The notes under the pieces: model-generated | The model's database searches: none | Told to the model about the DNA's origin: nothing | The model's input: only the letters and a program-made list of their open reading frames with translations | Shown here: piece after piece, positions 1-40,389 of the stretch | Layout: each line of letters begins with the position of its first letter | Position numbering within the stretch: position 1 is the stretch's first letter | From: an uncultured Piscirickettsiaceae bacterium | Lineage (GTDB): Bacteria > Pseudomonadota > Gammaproteobacteria > GCF-002020875 | Assembly: GCA_964416755.1 (NCBI GenBank) | Contig: CAYQFH010000002.1 | Coordinates: 1-52,035, forward strand | DNA length: 52,035 nucleotides | Reading direction: 5' to 3' | Made by a program: the position numbers and the translations under genes

Positions 1-1604
1 TGATTACGCGGCAGATAGACTTCATTAATCCCTTTCTCCACATTCACATCAATCACCACTCCTTGCCGATCGCGCTGGGGCTCCAAAAGCGCCACCACAT
101 CCTGCAAGAAGGCACGTGGCGCAAAGCGGCTCATCTGGAAAATCGGTTTTGCATTACTGCGCTGCAAGCGAATGATCTCGGAGATATCCTGAATCCCCCC
201 CTCAACCCGGCTCAGCGGCTCGTCCATCTCCTTTTTCATCAAGCGCCCAACCACCTCATGTGTTCGCGAGATCACCTCTCTCTGGGTCTCGGGAGGAATT
301 TCATCTCCACGTTCCACAAGCTTTTCCAGTACATTGATTGCATCACTGAGAGCTTCTCTACTGCGCTTGACCTTGTAGACCTGCCCGGTGATACCTGCCA
401 ACACATTCCCAATGTTGTGCATGATACTGATCGACATCTCGGCAATACCTGACTGAAATGCAACCATCTGCTCTTTCTCTTCGAGTTCACGCTGTTTGGT
501 AATATCCCTCACCAACATCAAGTGATATCCCTCTTCAGCATGGATCACCAATGGCGTAGAGGAGAGCTGCAAAGAAAGCTGGTTCTCTCTCCGGTCAGAA
601 AACAGCAGTGTCTCTGTCAGGTGCATCTCACCATGTAGGAGCTGAACAACCTGATCTCTGACCGTTTCCGGAAAGAGTGCAGCAAAATCGGGGGAGTCTG
701 TATCCTCTTCAAGCTGGGAGAAGAGTCGTGCAGCCGCCGGATTATAGACCCGTATATCCCCTGTGCTATCCACAACAAACAATCCATCCCCCATATGCTC
801 CATGACTGAGGTGAGTTGCTCATTGCTCTGTTTCAGGTCTCGGGTACGCTCCGTCACTTTCTCTTCCAGGGATGCCAACAACACCTCAAGCTCACCACGC
901 AACTGCATCTCTGCCGCCATACTTTTCTGCAACACTTCCACCCCTTCGCAGAGATGAATCAACTCCTTGGAGGCAAACTCTTGTGGAACAACGGAAATAT
1001 TCCCCCCTGACTCGACGCCACGCAGGTACCGATCCACACGATGAATTGGTTTTACAACCAGTTGTCGCACCATCACGAACAGCATCAATGCCAGAAACAG
1101 AACCGCTCCACCCATCAGGTAGACAAACTGCCGCACCTGCAGTTCAAGCGCATCAAGCTGCTGCTGCAGATCCCAACGCAGAGCCACTATCCCGAAACGT
1201 TCCCCCTCAAAGATGATGGGGCGCTGTGTGGTCATCACCCCTCCCTCCATTAGGGAGGGGCTCTCCTCTCCTTCTGCACAGTGAGGGGCATCTTTGCCCC
1301 AAGTGAGCAGCGGTTGGTTTTGATAGTTGCAGAACTCCGCCCCCACCAGATTGGGGTGAATCTCGATCAATCCCTGCAGTGTTGTCTCCAGAATGGGGAT
1401 ATCTTCACTGAGTAGCGCATCCAGCAGTGTTGTCGAAAACAGTGCAGCCCGCTTATCGACCTCCACCTCTATCTGCTCCAACTGAAGTGTATGCGCAACC
1501 CGCAAGAGCACACTGCCGCCCAGCCAGAGCAGCAGCAGACTGACTCCCAGCATCACCCAGAAAGTCTGGACACCAATCGACCAGCTTTTGGGAGAAAACA
1601 ACAT
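1..1604 (-). CDS. Sensor histidine kinase (TM - HAMP-like - PAS - HisKA/HATPase), 3' end cut by the window edge
   Basis: Absent from the ORF track because it runs off the left edge. My minus-strand translation from ATG 1604-1602 reads MLFSPKSWSIGVQTFWVMLGVSLLLLWLGG (TM), then a second TM followed by VVKPIHRVDRYL (HAMP-like), MGDGLFVVDSTGDIRVYNPAAARLF (PAS) and EMSISIMHNIGNVLAGITG (H-box region). It stays open to base 1. The start lies 15 nt after the stop of the upstream binding-protein gene. Confidence 0.8.
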   Translation of the reverse strand, partial: MLFSPKSWSIGVQTFWVMLGVSLLLLWLGGSVLLRVAHTLQLEQIEVEVDKRAALFSTTLLDALLSEDIPILETTLQGLIEIHPNLVGAEFCNYQNQPLLTWGKDAPHCAEGEESPSLMEGGVMTTQRPIIFEGERFGIVALRWDLQQQLDALELQVRQFVYLMGGAVLFLALMLFVMVRQLVVKPIHRVDRYLRGVESGGNISVVPQEFASKELIHLCEGVEVLQKSMAAEMQLRGELEVLLASLEEKVTERTRDLKQSNEQLTSVMEHMGDGLFVVDSTGDIRVYNPAAARLFSQLEEDTDSPDFAALFPETVRDQVVQLLHGEMHLTETLLFSDRRENQLSLQLSSTPLVIHAEEGYHLMLVRDITKQRELEEKEQMVAFQSGIAEMSISIMHNIGNVLAGITGQVYKVKRSREALSDAINVLEKLVERGDEIPPETQREVISRTHEVVGRLMKKEMDEPLSRVEGGIQDISEIIRLQRSNAKPIFQMSRFAPRAFLQDVVALLEPQRDRQGVVIDVNVEKGINEVYLPRN

Positions 1605-1618
1605 TCGAGTACCAGAAA

Positions 1619-2470
1619 CTATTGGTCGAAAAAGGCTCCGCTATGGTGGATTGCCTTGCGTACGGTGTCATAGGCTGCATCATCTCCAGCGACAAAACCA
1701 TCCTTCTTCAATACTTTCAGCGCCGCCTTGTCATCAAATGCAAGCAAGGTATCCACCAGCGCCTGCTGCTGCACGGAGGGAAGATCTGCACGTCCGGCCC
1801 AGGCCTTGGTCGCCAGTTTGAACTCTTTCAACACGCGGATCTTTCTACCCTTTTTAACCAATTTTTTGAAGGTGCTGGATTTCAATGCACCCGCATCAAA
1901 ATCCCCTTTGGCTACTGCCTCACCAACCCGGTCATGGCGCCCCAAATACTCATACTTCTGCAAGTCTCTCTCGTTGACCCCCGCCTCAGCCAACAACAGT
2001 TGTGCAAAATAGCGACCTATCGTCGATTTTTCACTGCCAAAGGCAAAACGTTTCCCTTTCAGTTCTGCCATCGAAGTGATGGGGCTCTCCTGATGGGCAA
2101 TGATGTAACCACTGCGCATCTTCTTCCCCTTTTTACTCTCCATCGCCAGTAGTGTAACTGCGGGATTCTTCTCTTTGGTCAATACATAGGAGGCAGGTCC
2201 AAAACGGGCAAAGTCAACCTCCCCTGTCGCCAGTTTATTGATGGCCTGCTCATACGTCGGCGAGATTCGAGTATGAATCTTGACCGCCTCTCCCAGCTGT
2301 TGGCTCAAGCGCTGCTCCAGCTGACTCAATAGCGGGCGAAACTGAGTCACTACGGCCGATGCCTTGTCTGACGCATAGAGACCAAAGTTGAGGGTAACCT
2401 CAGCATGCACTGCCCCCCCCTGCAGCATCAACCCCGTCACTGCCGGAGCGATCCACCGTTTAAAATTCAT
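1619..2470 (-). CDS. Periplasmic PhnD/phosphonate-type substrate-binding-like protein, probably sensor-associated
   Basis: 283-aa ORF with an ATG preceded by a GGGAGG SD and the signal peptide MNFKRWIAPAVTGLMLQGGAVHA. Overall resemblance to PhnD-family periplasmic binding proteins. It sits between a receiver gene and a kinase gene. Confidence 0.7.
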   Translation of the reverse strand: MNFKRWIAPAVTGLMLQGGAVHAEVTLNFGLYASDKASAVVTQFRPLLSQLEQRLSQQLGEAVKIHTRISPTYEQAINKLATGEVDFARFGPASYVLTKEKNPAVTLLAMESKKGKKMRSGYIIAHQESPITSMAELKGKRFAFGSEKSTIGRYFAQLLLAEAGVNERDLQKYEYLGRHDRVGEAVAKGDFDAGALKSSTFKKLVKKGRKIRVLKEFKLATKAWAGRADLPSVQQQALVDTLLAFDDKAALKVLKKDGFVAGDDAAYDTVRKAIHHSGAFFDQ

Positions 2471-2526
2471 TATCTCAACCTCCCTTGGGTCTCAAAAAAT
2501 TACACTAAACAGATTCAGATACAACG

Positions 2527-3075
2527 CTAGCCTGCTCTGTCCTTCAATACCCGACTCTCAGCTTCTCTCTCCTGCTCTCTTTGTCGATAGAGTGAAAAAA
2601 GTTCCGCAATCTGGGAGAGCTCTTCAGGAACAAATGGCTTTTTCAAATAGACAAAGTCCATGCCCAGTGCTTCACGAAGCTCGGCTGTGGAATAGTCTGC
2701 ATAGGCAGTGGCAATCACCAGATAGACTGATGGGTCGATTGCCCTGAGTCTGACTCCACACTCTACCCCTGTCATTCCCGGAGGCATTCGCACATCCAGG
2801 AACACGGTGGAAATGGGCTCATCCGCGTCAAACGCCTCACGGAAACAGTCGATCGCCTCTTCTGCAGAGCTTGCCTTGACGATCTTGAATGGTTGGCTGG
2901 GCTGAGTACCGTCACTACCCTCATCCCGATCTTCCGAGAGCAATTGCATCAATGCTGTTGTCTCGATCTGGTGTGTAGATCCCGCCAGGATCTCTTCGTA
3001 GGCGTTCAACACACCTTCGTCATCATCAACCACCATGATTTTTCGGCTAGACAGACTCAAGATTTTTCCATGCAC
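2527..3075 (-). CDS. Stand-alone CheY-like receiver protein (no output domain) with a ~30-aa acidic insertion
   Basis: Receiver motifs VVDDDE, FLDVRMPPGMTG (phospho-Asp), IATAYAD and LKKPF. The start is ambiguous (GTG 3075, TTG 3060 or ATG 3036). Confidence 0.8.
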   Translation of the reverse strand: MHGKILSLSSRKIMVVDDDEGVLNAYEEILAGSTHQIETTALMQLLSEDRDEGSDGTQPSQPFKIVKASSAEEAIDCFREAFDADEPISTVFLDVRMPPGMTGVECGVRLRAIDPSVYLVIATAYADYSTAELREALGMDFVYLKKPFVPEELSQIAELFSLYRQREQEREAESRVLKDRAG

Positions 3076-3129
3076 ACTTAAATTTCAATCAGAACTGTTC
3101 GCAAGCTAAATTTCCACCCTGTCGCAAGG

Positions 3130-3852
3130 TCAACGAATCTTGTGACAAGCGACACAAGGCCCCCGGTCATTATGTGGCATATCCCCGTTCTGTACCTGCT
3201 GTTGGGTAATATCGGGCGGAGGCAGAATAATCAGATCCGGATCCGGCATGGTAAAGCTGCCATCACCAATGGTATGGCAGTCGGTACAGGGGCCACGATA
3301 GGCATGAGGTCGCGGATCTCCCGGCAGGATCATCGGAGCACCCTCGGCCTGAGCAAAACCGAGCTCTAGGCGGGCACGGATGATATAGACCATGCGATGC
3401 ATCACATAACGACCATTACTATCCTTCTCCTCCCCCTTGCGCATCACAGTAACCGCTGCATGGCGCAGATTTTTCACCTGACGACTGGCCTCGACAAAAC
3501 TCTCCAGATCGGTAACCGGCATATCCTTGATTGCGACAATAATATCGCCGCCCAGCATACCGCTCAACGCTGCATTGAGTGTCACTTCATTGATGATCAC
3601 CCCCTGCATGCCACGCGGATAGCCCAGCTGTTGACGCAGTTCGGCAGTCAGTTTCATCACGTCCATCCCCTGCCAGTGCGCTTCATAAAGCTTCATCCTG
3701 GAGGGAATGAAATTGCCGCTGCCGGGTGCAGCCAGATTGTAGACCGGATCGTTGGGTTGCTGCAGCGATGCTGAACCCGTGACCGCACCAGCCAGTGACA
3801 CAGAAGCCAGTGAAAGTGCAGCACCCATCAGCAGAGGTTGAAGTTTCACCAT
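3130..3852 (-). CDS. mamP: MamP-like protein: N-terminal hydrophobic segment, PDZ domain, two magnetochrome-type c-haem motifs
   Basis: Hydrophobic N-terminus MVKLQPLLMGAALSLASVSLAGA and a PDZ-like core GVIINEVTLNAALSGMLGGDIIVAIKDMPVTDLESF. Two copies of PH-x(2,3)-RGPC-x2-CH follow: RPHAYRGPCTDCH (CTDCH codons 3274-3288) and MPHNDRGPCVACH (CVACH codons 3142-3156). The ORF-track start at 3879 is a TTG; the ATG at 3852 lies 4 nt after the mamO-like stop. Confidence 0.75.
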   Translation of the reverse strand: MVKLQPLLMGAALSLASVSLAGAVTGSASLQQPNDPVYNLAAPGSGNFIPSRMKLYEAHWQGMDVMKLTAELRQQLGYPRGMQGVIINEVTLNAALSGMLGGDIIVAIKDMPVTDLESFVEASRQVKNLRHAAVTVMRKGEEKDSNGRYVMHRMVYIIRARLELGFAQAEGAPMILPGDPRPHAYRGPCTDCHTIGDGSFTMPDPDLIILPPPDITQQQVQNGDMPHNDRGPCVACHKIR

Positions 3853-3856
3853 AATC

Positions 3857-5860
3857 TTACTGCAATAACAGGAGTGCAAACGCGATCACCAGCATGATCC
3901 CGATAAAGGTCCAGCGCTGCTGGGTCACTGTGGTCCGCTCCTGGAAGTAGTAACCGAGGAAACCACCACCATAGGTGCTGGGCACCAGAATCATGGCCAG
4001 CGTGAGCGGAGTCTGCCACTCAAAGGAGCCAATGGAGACACCATAACCCAGAGAGACCAGTGTTGCAGTCAGAGAGGCCCAGAAGACCATCACAATGGCA
4101 TTGGCTCGTGCATTCTCGGCAGAAAGCCCCGCATATTTGCGCTGGAAGTACTGCTCCACTACGCCACCACTCACCCCCAACAGACCGGTCAAAATGCCAA
4201 GAGGGCCACCCATGATGGGGGAAGTTGCCCAACCGCGCCGTACGTCGACCTCTTCCGAGTCAAGCAGGAAATTATCGATACGCTCCTCTTGATTCCTGGC
4301 CACCGGGCGCACATGGGATTCACGCTCTTGCAGATCTCCGCGCAACTCAAAATAGACCACCAGCGCCATTGCCAGCGCAAAGAGACCGAGTAAATAGCCG
4401 ATCACATGATCATAGAGATTATGTCCGAGGAAGTAGCCCAATACCGCACCCACGATGGTAGCCGGTAACAGCTCCTTGATACGGCGGGTAATGATCACCC
4501 CGGCAAACAGCTGGCGCAGGGCGGCAATACCGTAGGTGAAGAGGTTGGTGATGTAGATTACCGGACGCACCATGAAGACACCGTAACCAAACACCAACAT
4601 CATTCCGGCCACGGCGACAATGCCCCCTCCCATTGGTACCAGTGTACCCACTGCACCCGCAAAGACTCCCAACAATACCAGCCCGACAATGGCATCCAGC
4701 TTATAGAAGCCGAGATCAAAGCTGGAGTCATGCTCCAGATCCATCAAGCTGACCGAGTCCCCCGGTGCTCCGATATGCGCTACCCGCTGTTGCCCTTCTG
4801 CGGGCTCTGCGGTCACTGCAGCAACATTCTGAGCCAGTAGTGCTCCGGGATTGTTCTGATTCTGCTGATCCTGAATTGCAGCCAACTTCTCCTGACGGGT
4901 CTGCTGACGGGCCTGATCCCACCATGCAGCGGCCATCCCCTTGGCTGTACCCGACTGCATCGCACTATTTCCATTTGGAGTAATGGTTCCATTTTCAGCT
5001 GGCGCAACCGGTTTGGCAATCTTCTTCAACCCTTTGGAGGTCAGATCCACCACATCCTGAAAATGGGCACGAATCACGTGGGCAGGGACTACAAAACCTT
5101 CCGCCATCCCGCCTTGTCCCTGCAACAACAGACCGATCCCAACCAACTCTGCCTGCTGGTTGATTACCGCGCCACCGCCCTGCTCCCAACGCACCATCGC
5201 ATTGGTCTGCATCAGATGGGTTATCGGGTTGCCTGCAACCTGGCGTACCTGATCATTCAACTGCAAGATTCCAGGGTTGGCAACCACAGCCCCTTGCACA
5301 TCCTTGCCGATCGCAATCAACTGACTCTGCAGCGGAGCATTGCGGCTGTCTGCCAATTTCAGGTAGAGAAAACGATCATTGGTAACCATCTTCAGCAACA
5401 CCAGATCATGCGCTGGATGCTTCTTTACCACCTCGGTCTTGTAGAGACGAATACCGCTGCCACCCGCCACCTGAATCTGCAACTGATCCGGGTTATTTAC
5501 ACTGTGCAAAGTGGTAATGACATAACCATCCGGGTGCACTAAAACACCTGAAGAAACAACACCAGCACCTTGATTTACAATGGAAACAACCGCTGACCCA
5601 GCTGGAGTAACCAGATCAGTCTGTCCACCGGCAATATTCAAGCCACCCGCAAGACCACTCTGCGGTGTAGTATCCGAGGAGAACGATGAGAAGAAGTTGC
5701 TGACCGCATAGGATTCAACCTCATACTCTTCCAGATCAACATCATAGAGGTAGAGCGCCCAACCAAATAGCATCAGTGCTGCCAATGGCAACAGTGCCAG
5801 CGGGATCTGCCACGGCCTTTTACAGAAGACGATTTTGTTATCTAATCCTGCGAGTTTCAT
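3857..5860 (-). CDS. mamO: MamO-like fusion: TM anchor, degenerate trypsin/HtrA-like domain, C-terminal TauE/SafE-type transporter domain
   Basis: 667 aa. The protease-like region keeps His (YVITTLHSV) and Asp (HPAHDLVLLKM), but the GNSGG nucleophile box reads EQGGGAV (Ser replaced by Gly). The C-terminal ~270 aa are multi-TM with TauE-like glycine-rich helices (PMGGGIVAVAGMMLVFGYG, GILTGLLGVSGG). Confidence 0.75.
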   Translation of the reverse strand: MKLAGLDNKIVFCKRPWQIPLALLPLAALMLFGWALYLYDVDLEEYEVESYAVSNFFSSFSSDTTPQSGLAGGLNIAGGQTDLVTPAGSAVVSIVNQGAGVVSSGVLVHPDGYVITTLHSVNNPDQLQIQVAGGSGIRLYKTEVVKKHPAHDLVLLKMVTNDRFLYLKLADSRNAPLQSQLIAIGKDVQGAVVANPGILQLNDQVRQVAGNPITHLMQTNAMVRWEQGGGAVINQQAELVGIGLLLQGQGGMAEGFVVPAHVIRAHFQDVVDLTSKGLKKIAKPVAPAENGTITPNGNSAMQSGTAKGMAAAWWDQARQQTRQEKLAAIQDQQNQNNPGALLAQNVAAVTAEPAEGQQRVAHIGAPGDSVSLMDLEHDSSFDLGFYKLDAIVGLVLLGVFAGAVGTLVPMGGGIVAVAGMMLVFGYGVFMVRPVIYITNLFTYGIAALRQLFAGVIITRRIKELLPATIVGAVLGYFLGHNLYDHVIGYLLGLFALAMALVVYFELRGDLQERESHVRPVARNQEERIDNFLLDSEEVDVRRGWATSPIMGGPLGILTGLLGVSGGVVEQYFQRKYAGLSAENARANAIVMVFWASLTATLVSLGYGVSIGSFEWQTPLTLAMILVPSTYGGGFLGYYFQERTTVTQQRWTFIGIMLVIAFALLLLQ

Positions 5861-5890
5861 CTACTACACCATGATTTACGCTATCACCAA

Positions 5891-5933
5891 GAACAGACAA
5901 AGCCCCTGCAAGGTTGTACTCCTCAGCAGGGGC
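5891..5933 (-). terminator. GC-rich hairpin plus T-rich tail between the mamC-like and mamO-like genes (possible partial terminator/attenuator)
   Basis: The minus strand reads GCCCCTGC-(16 nt)-GCAGGGGC followed by TTTGTCTGTTCTT. The 8-bp perfect stem is at 5902-5909 / 5926-5933. Confidence 0.35.
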
Positions 5934-5959
5934 AGAGCGACTAAAACGACAACCGAATA

Positions 5960-6325
5960 TTAAGACTCAACGCCTTCAGCAAGAATTTCGTCCGCCTCAT
6001 CATTGTCACGCATGCGCAGCTCCAGCTGCTCCATGCCACGATCATAGGCATACTTGGCACCGGTTGCAGCAACCAGCGCAGTCCCCAGAGAGACCGCCAA
6101 ACCACCACCTACCGCACCAGCGGCCACTGCACTGAAAGCCGTTGCCAGCCCAGCACCCAGCCCCTCTTTACCAGTGTCATAGATTGCATCCTTGGTCTCT
6201 ACCAGACCATCACGGTGATCCTTGATATTCCTGGCCGCTGCACCAGAAGCACCAACCACCGCACCGAGCACACCCACACCGGAGGCGCTCTGTGCCAGAT
6301 ATTGCGCCAAATTAAATGCTGCCAT
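5960..6325 (-). CDS. mamC: MamC (Mms13/Mam12)-like small two-helix magnetosome membrane protein homologue
   Basis: 121 aa, with an ATG preceded by a GAGGGAGAA SD. It aligns by eye over nearly its full length with MamC as I remember it: [16 protein letters not shown], then [40 protein letters not shown], then an acidic tail. Confidence 0.75.
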   Translation of the reverse strand: [121 protein letters not shown]

Positions 6326-6361
6326 CTTCGTTCTCCCTCAATCTTCCAACAAGGATATATT

Positions 6362-6390
6362 GTTATAAATACTTCGACTTCCGTACACAA
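6362..6390 (-). promoter_or_regulatory. Candidate sigma-70 promoter upstream of the mamC-like gene
   Basis: Minus strand TTGTGT-(17 nt)-TATAAC. The -10 is at 6362-6367 and the -35 at 6385-6390 in plus-strand coordinates. The -35 is weak. Confidence 0.25.
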
Positions 6391-6451
6391 TCGAAAGTCT
6401 GAAGATCGATTAAACCATGTCCAAATGGAGTTGGCAAATCAATCTGTTTGC

Positions 6452-7048
6452 TCAGAAAAGCATCAGGTCATCTGCATTACGGTTACCGTACGCTTTGGCC
6501 TCCTGAATGGCCTCCTCTTTGGTCGCGCCACGCAGCAGCGCATCAAACAGCACCTTGCCCTCTTCCATGGTGAAAGAGCTGTAAACCTGATTTTGTAGCT
6601 CTTTCCACTCATTCGGGTTGAACAAGCGCTGCTGATCATTCACCAGATCGGCAGTGTTCTCCAGACTGCCTGCGATGTGGTTTAGCTGTTGGGTCAGACG
6701 ATCATAGAACTGAAAGCTGATGACTGCACTTTTCAGATCGCTGATCACCAGATCACACTTGTTATCGAGCCGATCCAGCATCTCCTGATACTGAGTACCA
6801 CAGCTCTCAGGCACTTCACCATCCACATCGCGCGCTGTCTGCTTGATTTCCTGCATATAGCGATTCATATTGGTGAAGGCCTCGATCAACGAAGTGATCG
6901 ACTCATCACCGGTAGACATGGAGTATTCGATGGCTGAGACTCCGACACGAAACATTCGTACCGTCTCTCGAACTTGACTCCAATCGAGGTCTGGCTTCTC
7001 AGCGGATGACGGAACGGATCGCAACTCACTCATGAATAATGCACTCAA
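6452..7048 (-). CDS. Soluble hypothetical protein with a CheZ-like F-Q-x-x-D-R-L-T-Q-Q helix motif
   Basis: 198-aa ORF (TTG 7048; first ATG at 7033) with no TM segment. The ISFQFYDRLTQQLNHI segment is reminiscent of the CheZ DFQDLTGQ active-site helix. The function is not established. Confidence 0.5.
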   Translation of the reverse strand: MSALFMSELRSVPSSAEKPDLDWSQVRETVRMFRVGVSAIEYSMSTGDESITSLIEAFTNMNRYMQEIKQTARDVDGEVPESCGTQYQEMLDRLDNKCDLVISDLKSAVISFQFYDRLTQQLNHIAGSLENTADLVNDQQRLFNPNEWKELQNQVYSSFTMEEGKVLFDALLRGATKEEAIQEAKAYGNRNADDLMLF

Positions 7049-7105
7049 AGAAAAACAATTAAGAATCTTCTTATTCTATCACGCCCGTTTTTCACTGCAC
7101 AGCGG

Positions 7106-7519
7106 TTATCGACGTCCAAACAGCCGGGAAAGCATTCTGAATGGGTGGCGAATCGCATAGGTTGTACTCTTCTTCTTCAGCAGTTTGAACTCCACCGCAG
7201 TCAACATATAGATGATCTCGCGGCTCAGGGCCTTTACCTCCAACAGCGCCTCGTTGGCCTCCTCTTTTCGACCGTGCTTATGGGAGCGAATCACCCGCCT
7301 CACCGCTTGGTGAAACTGTTTATGGTCACGCTCCAACTGCTGAATCTCGACATTGTTGCCAAACTCCCGCAATCCCTCCTCATAGAGCCATACCCCCAGC
7401 GGACAGTCCTCATGGGAGTCCACCTCAAGATGCTGCAGATGGTGTGTATCCAGCAACTCCTCCAGCTGCAGTTCCCAGGAGAGATGCACCAACCGCATAT
7501 AACCCAAATCAGAAATCAT
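7106..7519 (-). CDS. Stand-alone CZB (chemoreceptor zinc-binding) domain protein
   Basis: It matches the remembered CZB pattern exactly. HLSW (H-x2-W) is followed by 23 aa, then CPLGVW (C-x-L-G-x-W), then 21 aa, then HKQFH (H-x3-H). Its ATG overlaps the stop of the upstream ATPase-like gene (ATGA at 7516-7519). Confidence 0.85.
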   Translation of the reverse strand: MISDLGYMRLVHLSWELQLEELLDTHHLQHLEVDSHEDCPLGVWLYEEGLREFGNNVEIQQLERDHKQFHQAVRRVIRSHKHGRKEEANEALLEVKALSREIIYMLTAVEFKLLKKKSTTYAIRHPFRMLSRLFGRR

Positions 7520-8556
7520 GAAAGTCCCTTTCTCTTGAATAAAACCATGGAACGAATCTCCAGACGGTAACGCAATTCGCCACTGATCCTCCCCTCAAGA
7601 TGGCTGGAGAAGCTACGCTCAATCACCAGATCTGGAGTCAACTGCAAACAATAGATGGTCTTCCCTCCCTGGGCACTGCTCTGCAGAATGCGTGCACGCC
7701 GCCTCGACTTCTCATCAAATACGATATCTTCCGGCCGGATCAGCAGTTCAAGACGTGTTCCGTCCGGCAACCCGAAACCGGTGGGATGGTCAATCATGCC
7801 GAGCTCTGTATCGAGGCGCAGTTCATCATGCACTACCCCCTTGACCAGCACACCCGCTCCCATATAACGGGCCACACTCCGCTTCTGTGGTGTCGCATAC
7901 AGCTCCTGCGGTGCGCCCCACTGCAGCAGAATTTCGTTCTCCATCACACCGGCAAAATCACCCGCAAAAAGTGCGCCTTGCCGCACTGCCGTGGAAAGCA
8001 AAATACCGCAACCAAAATGTTCCACGATCCCCTCCAGACGATCCAGCAGGCGATAACGTGCCTCCACGCCAAGATCGAGCAGCGGCTCCTCCAGCAGCAG
8101 CAATACCGGACGGGTTACCAGTGCACGGGCAATCAACAGATAGCGTCTGGTCTCTTCATCCAGGACATCGGGGTAGCTGGCAGCATAATCCGCCAACTTC
8201 AACCCGGAAAGCACCTTCATACAGTGCTCACGCTTGTTGGAAATCCTGAAGTTCTGCAACACCAGACGCAGATTATCCAAAATAGTAAGATGTGGGTAGA
8301 AGCTTCCATCTCTCGGCACCCAGGCAATGGGGCGCTCCCAAGGGGGGGGAATTTTGCCACTCCGTGCAATCAGATCCCCACGCAGAAAGATCTCCCCCTC
8401 TTCAAACCCTTTCAATCCGGCGATCAGGCGGAGCAGTTCCCCTTTACCACTCTCCTCCTCCCCTAGAAGCAGACCGAGCTTACGCTCGGGAAGCGCCAGA
8501 GAAACTCTGGCACCGGTTGGCATTTGCAGTTGATGCAGCTTGAGTAGGTCAGCCAT
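7516..8556 (-). CDS. FbpC/PotA-family ABC ATPase-like protein with degenerate catalytic motifs and a C-terminal TOBE-like domain
   Basis: Collinear with ABC importer ATPases, but each motif is altered. Walker A is GEEESGKG (not GxxGxGKS/T), the signature is LDEETRRY (not LSGGQ), Walker B is LLLLEEP (not hhhhDEP), and the H-loop His is absent (LLSTAVRQ). The C-terminal LLIRPEDIVF block resembles FbpC. The ATG at 8556 overlaps the permease stop by 8 nt; the ORF-track GTG start is at 8580. Confidence 0.8.
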   Translation of the reverse strand: MADLLKLHQLQMPTGARVSLALPERKLGLLLGEEESGKGELLRLIAGLKGFEEGEIFLRGDLIARSGKIPPPWERPIAWVPRDGSFYPHLTILDNLRLVLQNFRISNKREHCMKVLSGLKLADYAASYPDVLDEETRRYLLIARALVTRPVLLLLEEPLLDLGVEARYRLLDRLEGIVEHFGCGILLSTAVRQGALFAGDFAGVMENEILLQWGAPQELYATPQKRSVARYMGAGVLVKGVVHDELRLDTELGMIDHPTGFGLPDGTRLELLIRPEDIVFDEKSRRRARILQSSAQGGKTIYCLQLTPDLVIERSFSSHLEGRISGELRYRLEIRSMVLFKRKGLS

Positions 8557-9295
8557 AGATAAAGGGCCCAAGTGCAACACCCAATGGCGTATAGAGCAGT
8601 GAAATCATCATCACCAGCAGCGTCCCTCGTGTCTTCATCGACACACGCCCTGCGCTTATCTGTTCAGGCAAAACCCGTGGCAATCTCCTGTAACTGCCCA
8701 GCAAGAGTGTCAGCGAAAGAGAGAGCAGCAGAACCCACTGCAGCAGCAACAATGGCTCTGGCTGTTCCAGAAGATAGAGCACCACCGGCAATGTCTCCAC
8801 CCCCAGCCGCTCAGCCACCCCGAAATCAAAATTGACCACCAACAGGGAGGCACCAAACACCCAAACCATCAACCGCAATAGCAGTGGTCGAACCACCATC
8901 GCCGGAGCCACACGATCAACCAACCCCAATTGGTAGCGCTGTTCACGCCCTACAGCCGCTGTGACTGCAAACAGTTTGACTGCAAACAGGGTTGAGAGGG
9001 CCACAGTTGAGAAAAGCAGCACAAAGAGGAGCGCAATACGCCCTTGGAAGAGTTCAATCCAGTGCAGCGGTACCCCTTCTGCAACCAATCTGGCCGGGGT
9101 AAGCAGCGCACTGAACACCGCCCCCCAGGCGATCCAGCGCATCAGCGTGCTGATTCTGCGGGTCACCAACATCCAGCCAATCCACCCTGAAAGCGGAAAT
9201 ACCAGGAGAGAGAGCGCCGCAGTTAATAACAGAGACTCCAGCAGCGGGGCAACGGCTGGAGGAAATTCAAGAAGCGGAAAATAGGACAGACTCAT
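8549..9295 (-). CDS. Multi-TM ABC permease-like membrane protein (divergent)
   Basis: 248 aa with about 6 hydrophobic segments and a weak EAA-loop-like stretch, FGVAERLGVETLPVV. Translationally coupled to the ATPase-like gene. Confidence 0.55.
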   Translation of the reverse strand: MSLSYFPLLEFPPAVAPLLESLLLTAALSLLVFPLSGWIGWMLVTRRISTLMRWIAWGAVFSALLTPARLVAEGVPLHWIELFQGRIALLFVLLFSTVALSTLFAVKLFAVTAAVGREQRYQLGLVDRVAPAMVVRPLLLRLMVWVFGASLLVVNFDFGVAERLGVETLPVVLYLLEQPEPLLLLQWVLLLSLSLTLLLGSYRRLPRVLPEQISAGRVSMKTRGTLLVMMISLLYTPLGVALGPFIYG

Positions 9296-9325
9296 CCGCC
9301 CTATTCTACCGCATCCATCTGGTGC

Positions 9326-9520
9326 TTAAAGTGAGTAGTTGTCTCTCAATCCCAATTTATTGCGATATGCCTCAGACTGATAGTGATCTCTTCGCTGACA
9401 ACAGAGGTTCCACAATCGAGAAACCTTGTAGAGAGAGAAAGAGAGCACCCCACTGAGAACTACTTTGGCGACAACCAGTACAGAAATTCCGAGAGAGGCA
9501 GCAATCAACATCATGATCAT
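9326..9520 (-). CDS. Small (64-aa) membrane protein, first gene after the Fur-box promoter
   Basis: The ATG at 9520 has an AAGGAG SD 7 nt upstream. The sequence is MIMMLIAASLGISVLVVAKVVLSGVLSFSLY followed by a basic/Cys tail. The longer ORF-track start at 9628 would overlap fur. Confidence 0.5.
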   Translation of the reverse strand: MIMMLIAASLGISVLVVAKVVLSGVLSFSLYKVSRLWNLCCQRRDHYQSEAYRNKLGLRDNYSL

Positions 9521-9557
9521 TATGGTACTCCTTACCTTGTTTGAACCAGTAAGGAGC

Positions 9558-9585
9558 ATTATATGCAAATGATAACGATTATCAA
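9558..9585 (-). promoter_or_regulatory. Sigma-70-type promoter with an embedded Fur box
   Basis: The minus strand reads TTGATA-(16 nt)-TATAAT. The 19-mer at 9565-9583, gcaaatgataacgattatc, matches the Fur consensus GATAATGATAATCATTATC at 15/19. The core palindrome TGATAAC-G-ATTATCA (9570-9584) lies across the -35/spacer. Confidence 0.7.
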
Positions 9586-9593
9586 TAGATATT

Positions 9594-10028
9594 TTACTCT
9601 TTTTTCTGGCAACTTCCGCAGACACCATAGAGCGTCAATGCATGGTCAGAGATCTGGAAAGAGTAATTGTCAGCAATTTCATGCTGCAGCTTCTCTATCT
9701 TGGCCTCAAAGAACTCCTCCACTGCACCACAGCTGGTACAGAGCAAATGGTCATGATGATCTCCACGATCCAACTCGAACACCGAGTGGCCGGTCTCGAA
9801 ATTGTGCCGCTTGAGTATTCCAGCCTGCTCGAACTGGGTCAATACGCGATAGACAGTGGCCAGTCCGATCTCCTCCTCTTTTTCGATGAGCGTACGGTAG
9901 ACCTCTTCTGCACTGAGGTGAATCTGTTCGCTCTCCTCCAGTAGCGCCAAAATACGCATACGGGGATGCGTTACCTTCAGGCCAGCACTCTTCAGTTGCT
10001 CTTTTTCAGATAGCGATTGATCAATCAT
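9594..10028 (-). CDS. fur: Ferric uptake regulator Fur
   Basis: 144 aa with LKVTHPRMRIL, ATVYRVLTQFEQAGI, the HHDHLLC-x2-CG motif and a C-terminal CGSC. A full-length Fur-family match. Confidence 0.95.
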   Translation of the reverse strand: MIDQSLSEKEQLKSAGLKVTHPRMRILALLEESEQIHLSAEEVYRTLIEKEEEIGLATVYRVLTQFEQAGILKRHNFETGHSVFELDRGDHHDHLLCTSCGAVEEFFEAKIEKLQHEIADNYSFQISDHALTLYGVCGSCQKKE

Positions 10029-10037
10029 CCCCCCCCC
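10029..10037 (-). repeat. Homopolymer G9 (minus strand) between the SD and the ATG of fur
   Basis: The plus strand has 9 consecutive C at 10029-10037. The minus strand reads AGGAAGGGGGGGGGATG. Confidence 0.9.
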
Positions 10038-10080
10038 TTCCTATTTTCATTCATGGTATCTATACAAAACAGAACAACTG

Positions 10081-11283
10081 TCAGAAGCGGATCGCTGTAC
10101 TGACCGGCTGCTCACCCTGTCTGATTTGTTGCTTTATGTCATCAATTTTATGTTGAAGCTGCAGTGTAGCATGCTTGACGATCTGATTGACCTCTGCCGA
10201 AGTGGTCACTGCATGTAATTTACTATTCAGCGCCTCCAACTGGCGACCATTGCTCTTTCTCACTTCACCAATCTCATAGCGCAACTCTTCCACAATACTC
10301 TTTTCACGACCATCCCCTCGCTGCAGTACCCCCTCATCCGCAGTCACCGGTATCCGTTGCTGGGAGAGCTGCTCCAACTGTTCAGCAAGCTGCTGCTGCG
10401 TCTGCTCAACAACTGCAAGTTGCTGCCTTAGCGGTTCCAGCAACGGTCGTAATTGCAACTCGGCAGGCACTTGCATGGAATCTATCTCATCTGTTGCTCC
10501 ACTGCCCTCAATCTGCTGCTGCATCTTCTGCATCAGGGCTGACTGTTCCGCAATCTGTCTGCTCTGCTCCAGAACCAACTGTTGAGTCTGCTTCAGTGCT
10601 CCCTGCAGTTGCTGCATTAATTGCGCCTGTTCAGCCTGCTGCTGTCTCGAATCATCAACAGCCTGTCTTGACTGTGCCAGCTCTTCATTCAACTGAGAAA
10701 AGCGTTGCTCGACCCCCCTGGAGATTTCGGCAGATTGCCGGGGTGCCACAGGTTGCTGTTGCCGGTTCAGTTCATTCAACTGCTGTTGCAGCTGAGCGAC
10801 TCTGTCCTCCATCTCCCGCAATTGCAGAGATTGAACCTCAGTCGAGTCACTTCCTCCCCCCTGTTCCAACTGATCCATACGCTTACCGATCCGGATCTGC
10901 TCCCGGCGGCTATTGGCCACCAGCTTGCCAATCTCACCCCGCATTTCATCCAGCGTAGAGGGAACCCCATCAATACGCTCTTTTAGCAACGCGACTTCAG
11001 ACTCCAACTGTTTTACCTCATGCTCAGAGAGGCTGGGAACGGGAACCACAACGGGTCGGGGCACTTCGCTCATCTCCTCAAGCGGCTGCTTAATCAGAAA
11101 TTCGGAAGTGACCGGCTCAATCACCGGTTCAGGCACACTATCCCCCTGCTGTATCAGCTGACCCAACGCATCGCCCTTAAAACAGCGATCCTCCCCAGGA
11201 CGATAGATGGCTTCTCCCAAATGGTCACCACTCACCTTAATACGGTCAAGCACCTGATTGCTAATCGATGAATCTACTTTCAT
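10081..11283 (-). CDS. Gln/Glu-rich coiled-coil protein of unknown function
   Basis: About 400 aa of heptad-like Q/E/L-rich sequence (LQQQLNELNRQQQ, QQQAEQAQLMQQLQG) after a ~60-aa N-terminal globular segment. The ATG at 11283 is preferred over the ORF-track GTG at 11373. Confidence 0.6.
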   Translation of the reverse strand: MKVDSSISNQVLDRIKVSGDHLGEAIYRPGEDRCFKGDALGQLIQQGDSVPEPVIEPVTSEFLIKQPLEEMSEVPRPVVVPVPSLSEHEVKQLESEVALLKERIDGVPSTLDEMRGEIGKLVANSRREQIRIGKRMDQLEQGGGSDSTEVQSLQLREMEDRVAQLQQQLNELNRQQQPVAPRQSAEISRGVEQRFSQLNEELAQSRQAVDDSRQQQAEQAQLMQQLQGALKQTQQLVLEQSRQIAEQSALMQKMQQQIEGSGATDEIDSMQVPAELQLRPLLEPLRQQLAVVEQTQQQLAEQLEQLSQQRIPVTADEGVLQRGDGREKSIVEELRYEIGEVRKSNGRQLEALNSKLHAVTTSAEVNQIVKHATLQLQHKIDDIKQQIRQGEQPVSTAIRF

Positions 11284-11433
11284 GACGTCCAGTATAAAAG
11301 GAGCCCTCTGACAGCACAACAGAACAACTGGATAAGGAAACGCCTGTTTTGCAAACTGTCTCTTCAGATCCACAGCATATGGACGCTAAATTCAGAGAAC
11401 CAACAGAAGAAAAACATCAATGGGACAAAACCA

Positions 11434-11628
11434 ATGAAACAGACAAAGAATTCTTCCCTCTCTCAAAAACACGAGATTCACTGGAATGCTGTTGGTGCTG
11501 GACTGGTCACTGCTGCCTTTATCTACCCTGAACAGCAGACCATTCTACTCTCCATGGGTGGCTCCAGCTTTATAACGGGAGTTATTCAGAAGCTGAGCAA
11601 GCGGAGACAACAGTCTGCCATTCAGTAA
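11434..11628 (+). CDS. Possible small hypothetical protein
   Basis: 64-aa ORF ending 40 nt before a strong terminator. The SD is weak and no family was recognised. Confidence 0.3.
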   Translation: MKQTKNSSLSQKHEIHWNAVGAGLVTAAFIYPEQQTILLSMGGSSFITGVIQKLSKRRQQSAIQ

Positions 11629-11667
11629 CCACACTACACCATGCAATAAACAGTAATTACTGCGTTC

Positions 11668-11706
11668 AAAAAAGCCCCCGGCTACACTGTAACCGGGGGC
11701 TTTTTT
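11668..11706. terminator. Bidirectional rho-independent terminator
   Basis: AAAAAA-GCCCCCGG-(11 nt)-CCGGGGGC-TTTTTT lying between convergent genes. Confidence 0.8.
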
Positions 11707-11740
11707 CAGCTGAGCCAATCGAGAACCGAGTACTCACAGC

Positions 11741-12019
11741 CTACCCAAACTCGTGCTCCTCATCAAAGATCTCATCGTGATGAGCACCTGCATGGCTGAC
11801 ACGATAAACCAGATAGATCAGATAAGGGGCTGCAACCAGAAGAATGACTCCAACATTCAGATTACCGGGAATCAGGCCATCATAGAAGCGGTCCAGATTG
11901 ATCCAGCCGGTCACAATCGACACGCCAATCGGGATCACAAACAGGCCAATCGAGAACCACACCAGAAAACGCAACCACTCCGTCCCTAACCACTCCGCAC
12001 AACAGATCACTCTATTCAT
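11741..12019 (-). CDS. Small two-TM membrane protein with an acidic/His-rich C-terminal tail
   Basis: The ATG at 12019 is preceded by AAGGTGAG. There are two hydrophobic helices, and the tail reads HAGAHHDEIFDEEHEFG. Confidence 0.55.
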   Translation of the reverse strand: MNRVICCAEWLGTEWLRFLVWFSIGLFVIPIGVSIVTGWINLDRFYDGLIPGNLNVGVILLVAAPYLIYLVYRVSHAGAHHDEIFDEEHEFG

Positions 12020-12257
12020 CACACTCACCTTAATCCGAAAAACGCTTTATCTATAACAACAAACTTACATAAATAATAATCTATAAGATTTGTTACTGAA
12101 ACCAATACAACAAATGTGCCAAGTGAAACGACAGTTTCTTGTCACTGGCGATATAACATTGAATTTCATGGAGTAAGCGAAAAACATTTCACAATCGAAA
12201 TATTACCAATATGTTATATTTGGCGTTTTATTCAGCCGATCACAACCGCTGCCTACT

Positions 12258-15200
12258 ATGCTTCTCCAGCCGCTGGCACTTTTTCGAAAATTGAAATTGA
12301 TCCACAGGATTCTGATCCTCCAGATCCTGTTGCTGGTTCCGTTTGTCCAACTGCTGCTCCACCACAATCAATCAGTCAGTGCGCTGCAATCCGAGAACAG
12401 ACTCTTCTCTCAAGGGGTGGAAAAAGTGCGGCAGCTTTCTCTGTTGCAAGAGCATATTGCACAATATCGCGGCCTTCACCATGGAGAGCAACAACGATCA
12501 CGCCCTGCCCGTTCCGAGACAACCGAACTACTGAAAGAGCTTCACCAGAACATTGACAGCGAAATTGCATCATTGAGTGACGCTACACTCCCCACACTCA
12601 ATCCGCATCTGATTGAGATCATCCAGACGCAGTGGCAGGCACTTGCCCACTCCTCCAACTCACATAAAGCCGACCATTTCAGCGGCTATACGAGACTGAT
12701 CAGTCAGGTTCACCACCTGATCAAACAGGTCTCCACAGTTAGCTCCCCAAAACTCAATCCCGAGCACCCGGAACTCCTCAAGATATACTCTCTCTCGACC
12801 CACACCATTGCAGCACTCAAGGAGCAGATGGGACAACTGCGAGGCATCACTTACGGAGCCCTTCAATCTGGACAGGATTTGACCAGCAATCAGCAGTTCC
12901 AGGTGCTGTTACCTATTACACTGTCTAAAATCGCAACCTACCGGGCTCTGGTTCGGGATCAACTCGTTGGCATTTACCAGTATAGCCCTGAACTCTACAG
13001 AGAGAGCTTTTCACTCTTTTCCGACTACTCCATCGAGTTGGCAGCACTCTTTGAACTGCTCAATTGGGAACTTGAAAACACTAGCGACGACTCTTCCTCG
13101 CTGCAACTATTCCAATCACCAGATGCCTTTTTCCAGCAGGTCAGTTTTCAGATCGAGCTGCTCGACCAGCTTATCCAGAATCTCTTTGCCCACATTGAGC
13201 AGCATCTGGCAGAAGAGCAGCAACAACTTATCCTCGAACATAACCGGCACCTGCTTTTACTGGTTCTGATACTGATTACAGCACTCCTCTCGCTCGTCTG
13301 GGTGCTCTACGACAACAATCGGGGAAATCTACAGTTACGCAGCTATCTACAACAAAAAGACCCCCTGCAACTGAACAACATGGAGACAGGTGACCACCTT
13401 TCCAATCTCGACCATGAACACTTGCAGATTTGGCAAGCCTACCACCATCTCGAGCAACATCTGGAACATGAAACCGCCCGACTACTCACACTGAAACAAG
13501 GTGTGGACCGTGCAGCAATGATCATGATTACCGACTTGGAGGGGGCCATTCTCTATGTCAACGAGTCCCTGATTGATCGAACCGGATACAGCGAAGCAGA
13601 ATTGTTGGGCAGTAAACCCAGCATATTGAAGTCAGGAGAGACATCCAGAGAGACCTACCAACGCCTCTGGAAGAGCATTCTTGCCGGCAAGATATGGAAA
13701 AACCAGCTCGCCAACCGAAGTCGTTCCGGCGAGCTATACTGGGTTGAGGAGACCATCGTCCCGCTACTGGATGACAATGATGAAGTCCAGGAGTTCTTCG
13801 CCATCCATGTCGAAATCACGACACAGATGATTGCGGAACAGCGCCTTGAGGGGGAGGTTAAAGAGCTGAAGGCGCTGCAGTCCGTTACTACAGAACATCA
13901 AAACCAGCAGTTGGATAGCGATTTCACAGTGACCTCACAGATGGAAGAGGACAATTCCCTCCTTCCGGTAGAGCCACAGAACGAACCCATCCGTGTGCTT
14001 GCCGTAGACGATGAGAAGGCCATTCTCGATAGCTACCGCGTACTACTGAGAGAGGATGACAGCGAAGCAGTGGATCAACTGGGCTCCTTGCTTGAGGGCT
14101 CTTCCATCACGTCCGAATATACTCCCCCCTTTATTCTGGAGTGTACAACCAGTGGTGAAATAGCCGTTGAGAAGCTGCGTTCTGCAATGAACCGTGGGAA
14201 GCCCTATCAGGTAGTCTATCTGGACATGTTGATGCCTGGCGGCTGGGATGGGCTCAAAACAGCAAAAGAGATTCTGCGCATCGACCCCATGGTGAGAATC
14301 ATCGTCATCAGTGCCTGGAGTGATCATAAACCTGCAGAGCTCAAACCTGTACTCGGAGAGCACTTCATCTATCTGAAAAAACCATTCAGCCGTGAAGAGT
14401 TGATCCAGCTTACCCACTATATGGCCGAGGATTGGCGCCGCACACAACAGCTGACACAAAGCAAGGAGTCACTCTCCCAGATCATGCTGGATCTTACAGA
14501 GAGTAACAGGCAGCGTCAGCACGAACTGGATAGCCAGCGAATTTATCAGATGATTCTGGTCACACTCTCGACCAGTGCACCACTCTTTTCCGGTGATCGC
14601 CAATCCGGATACAACGAGATCACACAAGCGACACTGGAGGCGCTGGGTGTAGACCGTGTCACACTATGGCGCCTGGAGGAGGAAGAGGGTGAACAGATAC
14701 TCATTGCCGACGACTGTTATAACGTGAAAGAGCAGCAACATCACTCTGGTGCCAGACAATACACAAGAGATTATCAGGAATTCTGGAACCAGATTGAGCA
14801 CCGGCAAGTTGTTCGCATCGATGACACAGCCCCCCTGCTCGAAAGCCTTTCTCAACCATCCAACTACTTCAATGAACACGATATTCAGTCGCTGATGATC
14901 TCTCCGATCTTCTATAACAACGAACAGACCGGTGTAATCACCGCTGAGGTGCAGACAGAATCGCGCGTCTGGAAACTGGAAGAAGCGACTTTCCTCTCCT
15001 ATGTCAGCAACCTCGTTCCAACCATTGAAATCTCAGCGGCACGCAAAGATGCAGAGACTCGTGCAGAAAATGCCAACAAGGCCAAGGATGATTTCCTGGC
15101 AACAATGAGCCACGAGCTCCGCACCCCGCTCTCCAGCATGATCGGCTATGGAGACATCCTCAGCGAAAGCCCATTGAACCATGACCAGCAAGATCTGGTG

Positions 15201-39800: not shown

Positions 39801-40389
39801 GGATCGCAGATTCACTCAACATTGAACGGATTACTTCAACCGGAATCTCATCAACCCGGTTGATCTCATGGGAGGTTCGGAAGCCATCAAAGAAGTGCAA
39901 GAATGGGATGCGTGAGGAGAGCGAGACGGACTGTGCAATCAATGCAAAATCGTGTGCCTCTTGAACTGAACTTGCCGCCAACATCGCAAATCCGGTACCA
40001 CGCACTGCCATCACATCACTATGGTCACCAAAGATGGAGAGTGCATGGGTCGCCAACGTACGGGCCGAAACATGAAAGACTGTCGGTGTCAGCTCGCCAG
40101 CAATCTTGTACATATTAGGAATCATCAGTAGCAGCCCCTGCGAGGCGGTAAAGGTGGTAGCCAGCGCGCCACCCTGCAAAGCACCATGAATCGCCCCTGC
40201 AGCACCTGCCTCACTCTGCATTTCGATCACCTCGGGTACATTGCCCCAGATATTCCTCTTTCCTGCTGCAGACCAGACATCGGAGAGCTCTCCCATCGGT
40301 GATGCTGGCGTAATGGGATAGATTGCAATCACCTCATTGGTCTGGTGTGCAATCCGGGCAACCGCCTCATTTCCATCCATCATTGCCAT
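36841..40389 (-). CDS. nifJ: Pyruvate:ferredoxin (flavodoxin) oxidoreductase, NifJ/YdbK type
   Basis: 1182 aa in a single chain, with two 4Fe-4S ferredoxin motifs (CIDCGKCPFVCP, CTGCGLCVEVCP) and the TPP-binding GGDGWAYDIG. Confidence 0.95.
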   Translation of the reverse strand: MAMMDGNEAVARIAHQTNEVIAIYPITPASPMGELSDVWSAAGKRNIWGNVPEVIEMQSEAGAAGAIHGALQGGALATTFTASQGLLLMIPNMYKIAGELTPTVFHVSARTLATHALSIFGDHSDVMAVRGTGFAMLAASSVQEAHDFALIAQSVSLSSRIPFLHFFDGFRTSHEINRVDEIPVEVIRSMLSESAIHQHRQRAMNPDHPVVRGTSQNPDTFFQQREAITPWYERAPELVEKAMERFMTLTGRRYRLFDYVGAANAERVIVLMGSGVGAAEETVEHLVARGERVGLVKVRLYRPFSAKHLLQVLPGNIKRMAVLDRMKEPGAGGEPLYKDVVTALAMNIGREALWKGEMPQIVGGRYGISSKEFTPAMVKAIFEMLERQPKPSFTVGIEDDVTGSSLQWERNFRPDAVQNQFKALFYGLGSDGTVSANRNAIKIIGEESDRYGQGYFVYDSKKSGAVTISHLRFGDTPVRSSYLITGGEADFVACHQERFLTRYRMAEMAKPGAVFLLNSSQSPESVWDTLPRSQQQVVIDRKLRLYVIDASRVAAGVGMGKRVNTVMQSCFFAISEVLPPAVAIAAMKRAVEQSYGKKGEAVVQQNFNAIDAALNHLYPVVVPERATSTLELVQPVPEDAPPFVQQVTAVLIAGDGEQLPVSVFPQDGTWPTGTTQWEKRNLALEIPCWDERLCIDCGKCPFVCPHSAIRSKVFDLEHAVQSPAGFKYAPAKGKEFAPQIQISYQVAPEDCTGCGLCVEVCPVEDRQNPGHKALDMVPVEQMLLEQECANWEFFRKLPEYDRTLVRPNTLKGAMLFQPLFEFSGACTGCAETPYVRLASQLFGERMLVANATGCSSIYGGNLPTTPWTVTTEGRGPAWNNSLFEDNAEFGMGMRIALDHQLDEVKDGLLQMRAELGERMVDELLSRDQSSESGIYQQRLSVEQLSELLYQVGTEEALALDELIEVLVRRSVWIIGGDGWAYDIGFGGVDHALASGRDLNILVLDTEVYSNTGGQTSKATPRGAVAKFSAGGKMSAKKNLADVAISYGNVYVGQVAYGARDMQTLKTFLEAESYPGTSMIIAYAPCTAHGVELGENHNRQRLAVESGHWPLFRYDPRRRDQGKSPMQLDSKPPTRAYAEFMQGEERFNALLRSHPKEAEALQQQAQEEVSARFNHYQMLAGSL

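Follow-up and report, generated by a model that had tools for sequence, protein, structure and literature searches.

Magnetochrome domains are defined by the pattern psi-x5-9-PH-x5-9-CxxCH-psi, in which the histidine of the PH pair is the sixth haem ligand (PMC3971196). The original prediction described two such signatures in a PDZ protein encoded on a 52,035-nt stretch of DNA from an uncultured Piscirickettsiaceae bacterium (the whole analysed stretch is referred to here as the window). We asked which protein carries these signatures and how its gene relates to the magnetosome genes of related bacteria. Our answer is that the open reading frame at 3130-3852 represents mamP in an uncultured gammaproteobacterium whose clade, in its other sampled members, carries full magnetosome gene clusters, a reading to which we assign a probability of about 0.93. 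The product is an ordinary MamP ortholog that is unnamed in public records, and the family to which it belongs is already well characterised.

The mamP reading frame and its haem motifs

The mamP coding sequence (240 aa) lies on the minus strand at 3130..3852, running from an ATG at 3852 to a TGA at 3130-3132, and was delimited by its open reading frame together with profile, PDB, and fold matches. The ATG at 3852 is also where the publicly annotated gene begins (P0001, 240 aa, 100% identical), and it agrees with the N-termini of the orthologs. An upstream in-frame TTG at 3879 brought no gain in any profile score. Two plus-strand ORFs (3142-3369 and 3397-3774) were rejected as shadow ORFs, as both lie fully within the conserved minus-strand frame, for which dN/dS was 0.08-0.18.

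Translation of the minus strand placed the first motif, PHAYRGPCTDCH, at aa 182-193, with CTDCH at aa 189-193 (3274-3288), and the second, PHNDRGPCVACH, at aa 226-237, with CVACH at aa 233-237 (3142-3156). Both pentapeptides were therefore located to the base as originally predicted. The predicted spacing of 39 residues (residues 194-232) was also recovered, as was the position of the second motif at the extreme C-terminus: only K-I-R comes after CVACH, so that the motif ends three residues from the stop. Both haem motifs stand in a PH-x5-CxxCH context. When the whole 52-kb window was translated in six frames, PH-x5-9-CxxCH occurred twice, both times inside the mamP ORF; in 100 mononucleotide shuffles of the DNA the pattern occurred at a mean of 0.02 per window with a maximum of 1. 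This comparison ruled out a chance origin of the motif pair. CxxCH as such was found 10 times in the six-frame translation, compared with about 3 times in mononucleotide shuffles, and the eight occurrences outside mamP lacked the PH context.

Domain architecture of the product

The first 24 residues (MVKLQPLLMGAALSLASVSLAGAV; 3781..3852, minus strand) form a putative N-terminal export signal or membrane anchor, in which AGA followed by V resembles a signal-peptidase site. By inspection, the N-terminus is short and signal-peptide-like, reading MVKLQPLLMGAALSLASVSLAGA before this V. The structure of the product was modelled with AlphaFold as a monomer from a 64-sequence alignment. The model had a mean pLDDT of 80, with low values over residues 1-35 and values below 50 in the linker 201-208.

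A PDZ domain, recognised by Pfam PDZ_2 and by the AlphaFold model, occupies approximately aa 45-170 (3343..3720, minus strand). The PDZ_2 match covered aa 77-144 and scored 28.1 bits against a gathering score of 27, and the PDZ core was modelled with a pLDDT of 88-98, in agreement with the PDZ assignment of the original prediction. The beta-hairpin of this domain is extended by 10-12 residues (aa ~141-153), and its strands (131-143 and 149-159) were modelled confidently.

The PDZ domain is followed by two magnetochrome domains. Profile alignment, proposed earlier as a check, yielded a match to Pfam MCR (PF18509) of 46.5 bits against a gathering score of 30.4, in two stretches, both of which agree with the published definition. 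Magnetochrome domain 1 corresponds to the best MCR stretch (aa 173-197; 3262..3336, minus strand), and its predicted ligands are the distal His183 of the PH pair and the proximal His193, with haem attachment at C189/C192. Magnetochrome domain 2 corresponds to the second stretch (aa ~218-239; 3136..3201, minus strand), for which His227 of the PH pair, C233/C236, and His237 are the predicted counterparts. The magnetochrome segments had a pLDDT of about 70-75, as expected for a model without haem.

Assignment to the MamP family

Among the NCBIfam models, MamP (NF040965) was by far the best match, at 299.6 bits (E 2.8e-89). The score was the same with either start codon and fell 0.4 bits short of the cutoff of 300, because the first ~83 profile positions, which represent the long alphaproteobacterial N-terminus, were unmatched. 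Four other gammaproteobacterial MamPs (P0098, P0007, P0014, and P0093) scored 280-299 bits and likewise stayed under 300, whereas Magnetospira QH-2 matched the full profile at 387.7 bits and Magnetofaba IT-1 reached 321. As a consequence of this narrowly missed cutoff, the public orthologs are named only "PDZ domain-containing" or "magnetochrome domain-containing protein."

The structural comparisons gave the same assignment. A phmmer search matched the crystal structure of MamP from MO-1 (4JJ0) with an E of 2.4e-47 over aa 40-239, and the identity to the crystallised protein was ~47-50% over these ~200 residues. In a Foldseek search with the AlphaFold model, the top three PDB folds were 4JJ0_A, 4JJ0_B, and 4JJ3_B (E 3.6e-19 to 1e-17; target-normalised TM 0.74-0.77), of which 4JJ0_A gave an E of 3.6e-19 and a TM of 0.76 normalised to the target. 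HtrA/DegQ-type PDZ domains came next.

To place the individual residues, 15 MamPs from Gammaproteobacteria, Alphaproteobacteria, and Magnetococcus-type bacteria, including MO-1, were aligned. The window MamP retained all 41 of the 41 invariant columns. Those kept include E57, W60, Q61, and G62; P182, H183, R186, G187, C189, T190, C192, and H193; the linker motifs PDPD (203-206) and PP (211-212); and P226, H227, R230, G231, and C233. C236 and H237, which are nearly invariant, are also kept. All of the family-invariant acidic residues of this alignment (E57, E71, E89, D103, E170, D204, and D206) are present. The 64-sequence alignment gave a shorter invariant list, again kept in full by the window MamP. 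Amino acid identity of MamP to its orthologs was 56-81%, with a dN/dS of 0.08-0.18, values that are rough as dS was near saturation. Across mamC, mamO, and mamP, dN/dS against orthologs ranged from 0.04 to 0.18; with dS nearly saturated these values are qualitative, and in that qualitative sense they point to purifying selection on all three genes.

The mamC-mamO-mamP genes and the upstream Fur module

Immediately upstream of mamP, and on the same strand, lies mamO (3857..5860; 667 aa), with 4 nt between the mamO stop and the mamP ATG. Its product was identified by Pfam Trypsin_2 and TauE, by NCBIfam MamO (532 bits, cutoff 800), and by the MamO protease domain structures 5HM9/5HMA (E ~1e-41). 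The position of the serine reads WEQGGGAV, where GGG replaces the HtrA catalytic serine motif, so that no catalytic Ser is present. MamO is a non-catalytic, metal-binding pseudoprotease, and the GGG of the window protein is consistent with this. Next comes mamC (5960..6325, minus strand; 121 aa), which scored 130.3 bits with NCBIfam MamC (NF038051; cutoff 100) and was 90-94% identical to mamC of relatives. The 4-nt gap suggests coupled expression of MamP with the nucleation factor MamO; mamP is probably translationally coupled to mamO and in an operon with mamC.

Upstream of mamC, also on the minus strand, we found a module at 6452..10028, delimited by Pfam and NCBIfam matches and by conserved gene order. 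From the mamC side, it comprises a protein of 193/198 aa (6452-7048), a CZB-domain protein (7106-7519), an ABC ATPase (7516-8580), a 248-aa protein (8549-9295), an ORF of ~64 aa (9329-9520), and Fur (9594-10028; 182.7 bits against a cutoff of 146). The CZB-domain protein and the ATPase were recognised by Pfam/NCBIfam, and the 193-aa, 248-aa, and 64-aa proteins by conserved order. Upstream of Fur is a 430-aa coiled-coil protein (10081-11373, minus strand) with a weak SMC-like match only; its counterpart in a relative has 403 aa and is 36% identical, which is far less conserved than the neighbouring genes. Neither Pfam nor NCBIfam assigned a family to the 193-aa, 248-aa, and 64-aa proteins of the module or to the 430-aa protein.

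The genes downstream of mamP encode a response regulator (2527-3075), a PhnD-like binding protein, and, where the contig ends (1-1616), a kinase. The gene after mamP is not conserved, being ArsB in GCA_973355605.1 and a response regulator in the window. Signalling genes thus surround the mam genes, namely this response regulator, the CZB-domain protein, and the contig-end kinase; the main cluster of relatives opens with a single-domain response regulator (L006 4259-4666). No Rfam family reached its gathering threshold in 1-12500. Promoter and terminator scans of 2400-7300 gave counts at or below the shuffle expectation and left the operon boundaries undefined. No tRNA genes were found, and GC was uniform at ~52%; signatures of horizontal transfer were not seen.

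The module in related genomes

MamP homologs at 60-87% identity came from unnamed or "Gammaproteobacteria bacterium" MAGs. GTDB species representatives, a collection outside which the window's own genome lies, were scanned with one chimeric MamP+MamB query. The nearest genomes were "uncultured Piscirickettsiaceae bacterium" ERP019367_co1_36 and co2_115 and the Gammaproteobacteria MAGs SRR3724456_binner123, SI037_bin54, and co234_bin55.

In GCA_973355605.1, a 71-kb contig (CCWXVF010000015.1) carries on one strand, in order, PFOR and hyp genes, a response regulator, and a main cluster reading mamL-M-O-A-Q-R-B-S-T-x-F-H-I-E-x-K. After it follow a few unassigned genes, Fur, a 64-aa ORF, a 251-aa protein, the ABC and CZB genes, a 193-aa protein, mamC-mamO-mamP, ArsB, and ProRS. 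The layout recurs on a 53-kb contig from ENA that belongs to a second species, so that in two relatives the main cluster is followed on one contig by the module, in the order main cluster, Fur block, mamC. The module from Fur to mamP was conserved in at least six lineages, and its gene order was shared by L002/L003, L004/L022, L009/L021, L023, and L031. Its proteins showed 45-85% amino acid identity to the reference relative L009, the window itself showing 66-85%; mamC was not detected by tblastn in lineage L031.

In the main clusters of five relatives, tblastn found no mamP at its canonical site between mamO and mamA. Two MamO paralogs, ~36% identical to each other, occur in the clade: one in the main cluster (mamM-mamO-mamA; L006 6010-7938) and the other adjacent to mamP (L009 7960-9996). 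The window MamO is of the second, mamP-adjacent type (MamO2). The gene orders suggest that, in this clade, mamP has been moved to, or retained in, an accessory operon with a second divergent mamO. The arrangement also suggests a specialised MamO-MamP pair for nucleation and oxidation, and the conserved adjacency of the Fur module hints at a functional link to mamP. In GCA_015231435.1, a more distant gammaproteobacterial MAG, mamC-mamO-mamP is oriented divergently beside mamM, a protease gene, mamQ, mamB, mamS, and mamT. Between mamM and mamQ, the same MAG encodes a protein of 300 aa (L005 3691-4593) that combines a MamO-like N-terminus with a trypsin domain and lacks TauE, and near this a 320-aa glycine/alanine-rich protein with LG repeats that is MamD/Mms6-like (6140-7102).

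The core magnetosome genes

The core magnetosome set consists of mamA, B, E, I, K, L, M, O, P, and Q (PMC3971196). The mam genes of the window were mamC, mamO, and mamP only; profile searches and tblastn, the latter with 29 proteins of one relative (17 encoded at the main-cluster locus and 12 at that of the module), found none of mamA, B, E, I, K, L, M, and Q in the 52 kb. The remaining ~40 kb encodes two histidine kinases, a sigma-54 regulator, RelA/SpoT, a radical-SAM protein, TonB/ExbBD, UbiA, GuaA, and IMPDH, as well as PFOR, HypX/HypF, a TonB-dependent receptor, and PpiD. The PFOR gene (36841-40389) has 76% nucleotide identity to its homolog beside the main cluster of GCA_973355605.1. In the region compared (11374-40389), the window has ~26 kb of housekeeping genes between PFOR and the Fur module, whereas the relative has hyp genes and a mamAB-like cluster, a difference produced by either rearrangement or loss.

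A MamB (P0133) and a MamQ (P0234), both recorded from NCBI plus Logan on one 4179-nt contig, were 95% and 94% identical, respectively, to those of GCA_973355605.1. This contig may belong to the genome of the window, as its divergence and source pattern are as expected. We consider it very probable that the core cluster is present elsewhere in the genome. With the core genes absent from the 52 kb, the organism of the window is a putative magnetosome producer.

Alternative explanations

Because CxxCH motifs and PDZ domains are each common on their own, the gene might in principle belong elsewhere, either with MamT, MamX, or a fragment of MamE among the magnetochrome proteins or with generic PDZ dihaem c-type cytochromes unrelated to magnetosomes. 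The NCBIfam models of MamT and MamE did give weak matches (28.7 and 25.7 bits), but the MamP model scored ten times higher, and the domain content is also against this alternative: there is no trypsin domain as in MamE and no MamS/MamX domain as in MamX, and a PDZ domain is present, which does not fit MamT. The relatives, moreover, hold mamT and mamE as separate genes in their main clusters. Both the full-length alignment and the best fold led to MamP 4JJ0; no generic multihaem cytochrome family was matched in the Pfam search of the product, and none was among the Foldseek fold matches of the model. As far as sequence and fold decide, the Pfam, NCBIfam, phmmer, and Foldseek results refute this alternative, which we regard as extremely improbable. 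The original prediction had assigned the protein to the magnetochrome class of MamP/E/T/X and had noted that placement in a generic multihaem family would count against it; the class was borne out, and profile, structure, and context narrowed it to MamP. The same three lines of evidence support its view of a magnetosome-linked iron-redox protein, for which homology predicts haem binding and Fe(II) oxidation, and its remark that these domains are essentially restricted to magnetosome-associated proteins is consistent with the literature (PMC3971196).

The second alternative accepts MamP and concerns the genome. The locus could be a retained cluster fragment in an organism that lost the core mamAB genes or never had them, with MamP, MamO, and MamC surviving as a relic or in a non-magnetosome periplasmic iron-redox role beside Fur. 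A window that holds only mamC-mamO-mamP is what this explanation calls for, as is the stretch of ~26 kb with IMPDH, GuaA, UbiA, ExbBD/TonB, RelA/SpoT, and histidine kinases at the place where GCA_973355605.1 has its main cluster, between PFOR and the Fur module. Such a relic is nevertheless difficult to reconcile with three mam genes that are all intact at a dN/dS of 0.04-0.18 against orthologs, in DNA of uniform GC content with no sign of decay. In every sampled relative where both regions are visible the full cluster is present, and the MamB/MamQ pair, possibly of this genome, has the expected divergence. MAG assemblies, furthermore, often split magnetosome clusters; CAYFNH01 splits a region that was assembled whole in GCA_973355605.1. 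We therefore judge it unlikely, at well below one chance in ten, that the locus is such a fragment, and equally unlikely that, in the genome of the window, mamC-mamO2-mamP and the Fur-ABC-CZB genes have been separated from the core mamAB cluster or have persisted after it was lost. Were the core genes truly absent, the magnetochrome domains of MamP would be working outside the magnetosome, for example in a Fur-linked periplasmic Fe(II) oxidase. Better supported than core loss is the reading that magnetotactic bacteria of the clade express mamP from an accessory operon of its own, together with a second, highly divergent MamO dedicated to it.

Proposed function and implications

The following mechanism is modelled on the characterised proteins of MO-1 and AMB-1. 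The hydrophobic N-terminal segment would take the protein across the inner or magnetosome membrane or anchor it there. One haem would be attached at C189/C192 and one at C233/C236 by the cytochrome c maturation system, with His193 and His237 as the likely proximal ligands and His183 and His227 of the PH motifs as the likely distal ligands. PDZ-mediated pairing of two monomers could create an acidic "crucible" with four solvent-exposed haems around it. Fe(II) bound in the crucible would be oxidised to Fe(III) (ferrihydrite), which may provide the Fe(III) that magnetite requires and so determine its balance of Fe(II) and Fe(III), and the electrons would pass on to a partner. For MO-1 MamP, a dimeric crucible, ferroxidase activity, and the formation of ferrihydrite and magnetite in vitro have been reported, and mutants of the acidic pocket in AMB-1 support the role of MamP (PMC3971196; PMC3840617).

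By its mamP gene, the contig can be attributed to a clade of uncultured Gammaproteobacteria that bears magnetosome genes and whose MAGs are labelled Piscirickettsiaceae or Gammaproteobacteria. The MamPs of this clade are left unnamed by automated annotation, a systematic gap through which surveys of magnetotactic bacteria can miss these organisms; a related MamP (P0100, of the P0011 cluster) is recorded on 111 contigs. To magnetochrome biochemistry the window MamP adds nothing new. The relocation of mamP to an operon with mamC and mamO2, in a conserved position beside the Fur/ABC/CZB genes, is an observation of comparative genomics and the only mildly unusual feature of the locus, and the unassigned proteins of the module are uncharacterised candidates for a magnetosome-associated or iron-regulatory role.

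Comparison with known magnetochrome proteins

Tandem MCR domains are shared by MamP with MamT, MamE, and MamX (PMC3971196), and the three differ from it in what accompanies them: MamT lacks a PDZ domain, in MamE the MCRs are preceded by a trypsin domain and followed by PDZ domains, and MamX carries a MamS/MamX-type domain. The window MamP shows none of these arrangements. With alphaproteobacterial MamP (Magnetospira QH-2 and Terasakiella SH-1; NF040965) it has the domain order and the invariant residues in common. The alphaproteobacterial proteins are 270-370 aa long, with a long N-terminal membrane anchor and linker, whereas the window MamP has 240 aa and a much shorter N-terminus, matching NF040965 only from profile position ~84. 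In Alphaproteobacteria, mamP also occupies its canonical site directly after mamO.

The closest comparison is with MamP of MO-1 (PDB 4JJ0 and 4JJ3; Siponen et al. 2013, via PMC3971196 and PMC3840617). Both proteins consist of a PDZ domain and two C-terminal magnetochrome domains with identical PH-x5-CxxCH spacing, and both have the PDPD and LPPP linker motifs. The window MamP differs in the 10-12 additional residues of its PDZ beta-hairpin, which fall in a gap of the 4JJ0 alignment and are absent from MO-1, in four added residues in the linker between MCR1 and MCR2, and in its short, signal-peptide-like N-terminus. The setting of the gene differs as well: in MO-1 it is the mamAB operon, whereas in the window mamP follows a second copy of mamO in the probable mamC-mamO-mamP operon.
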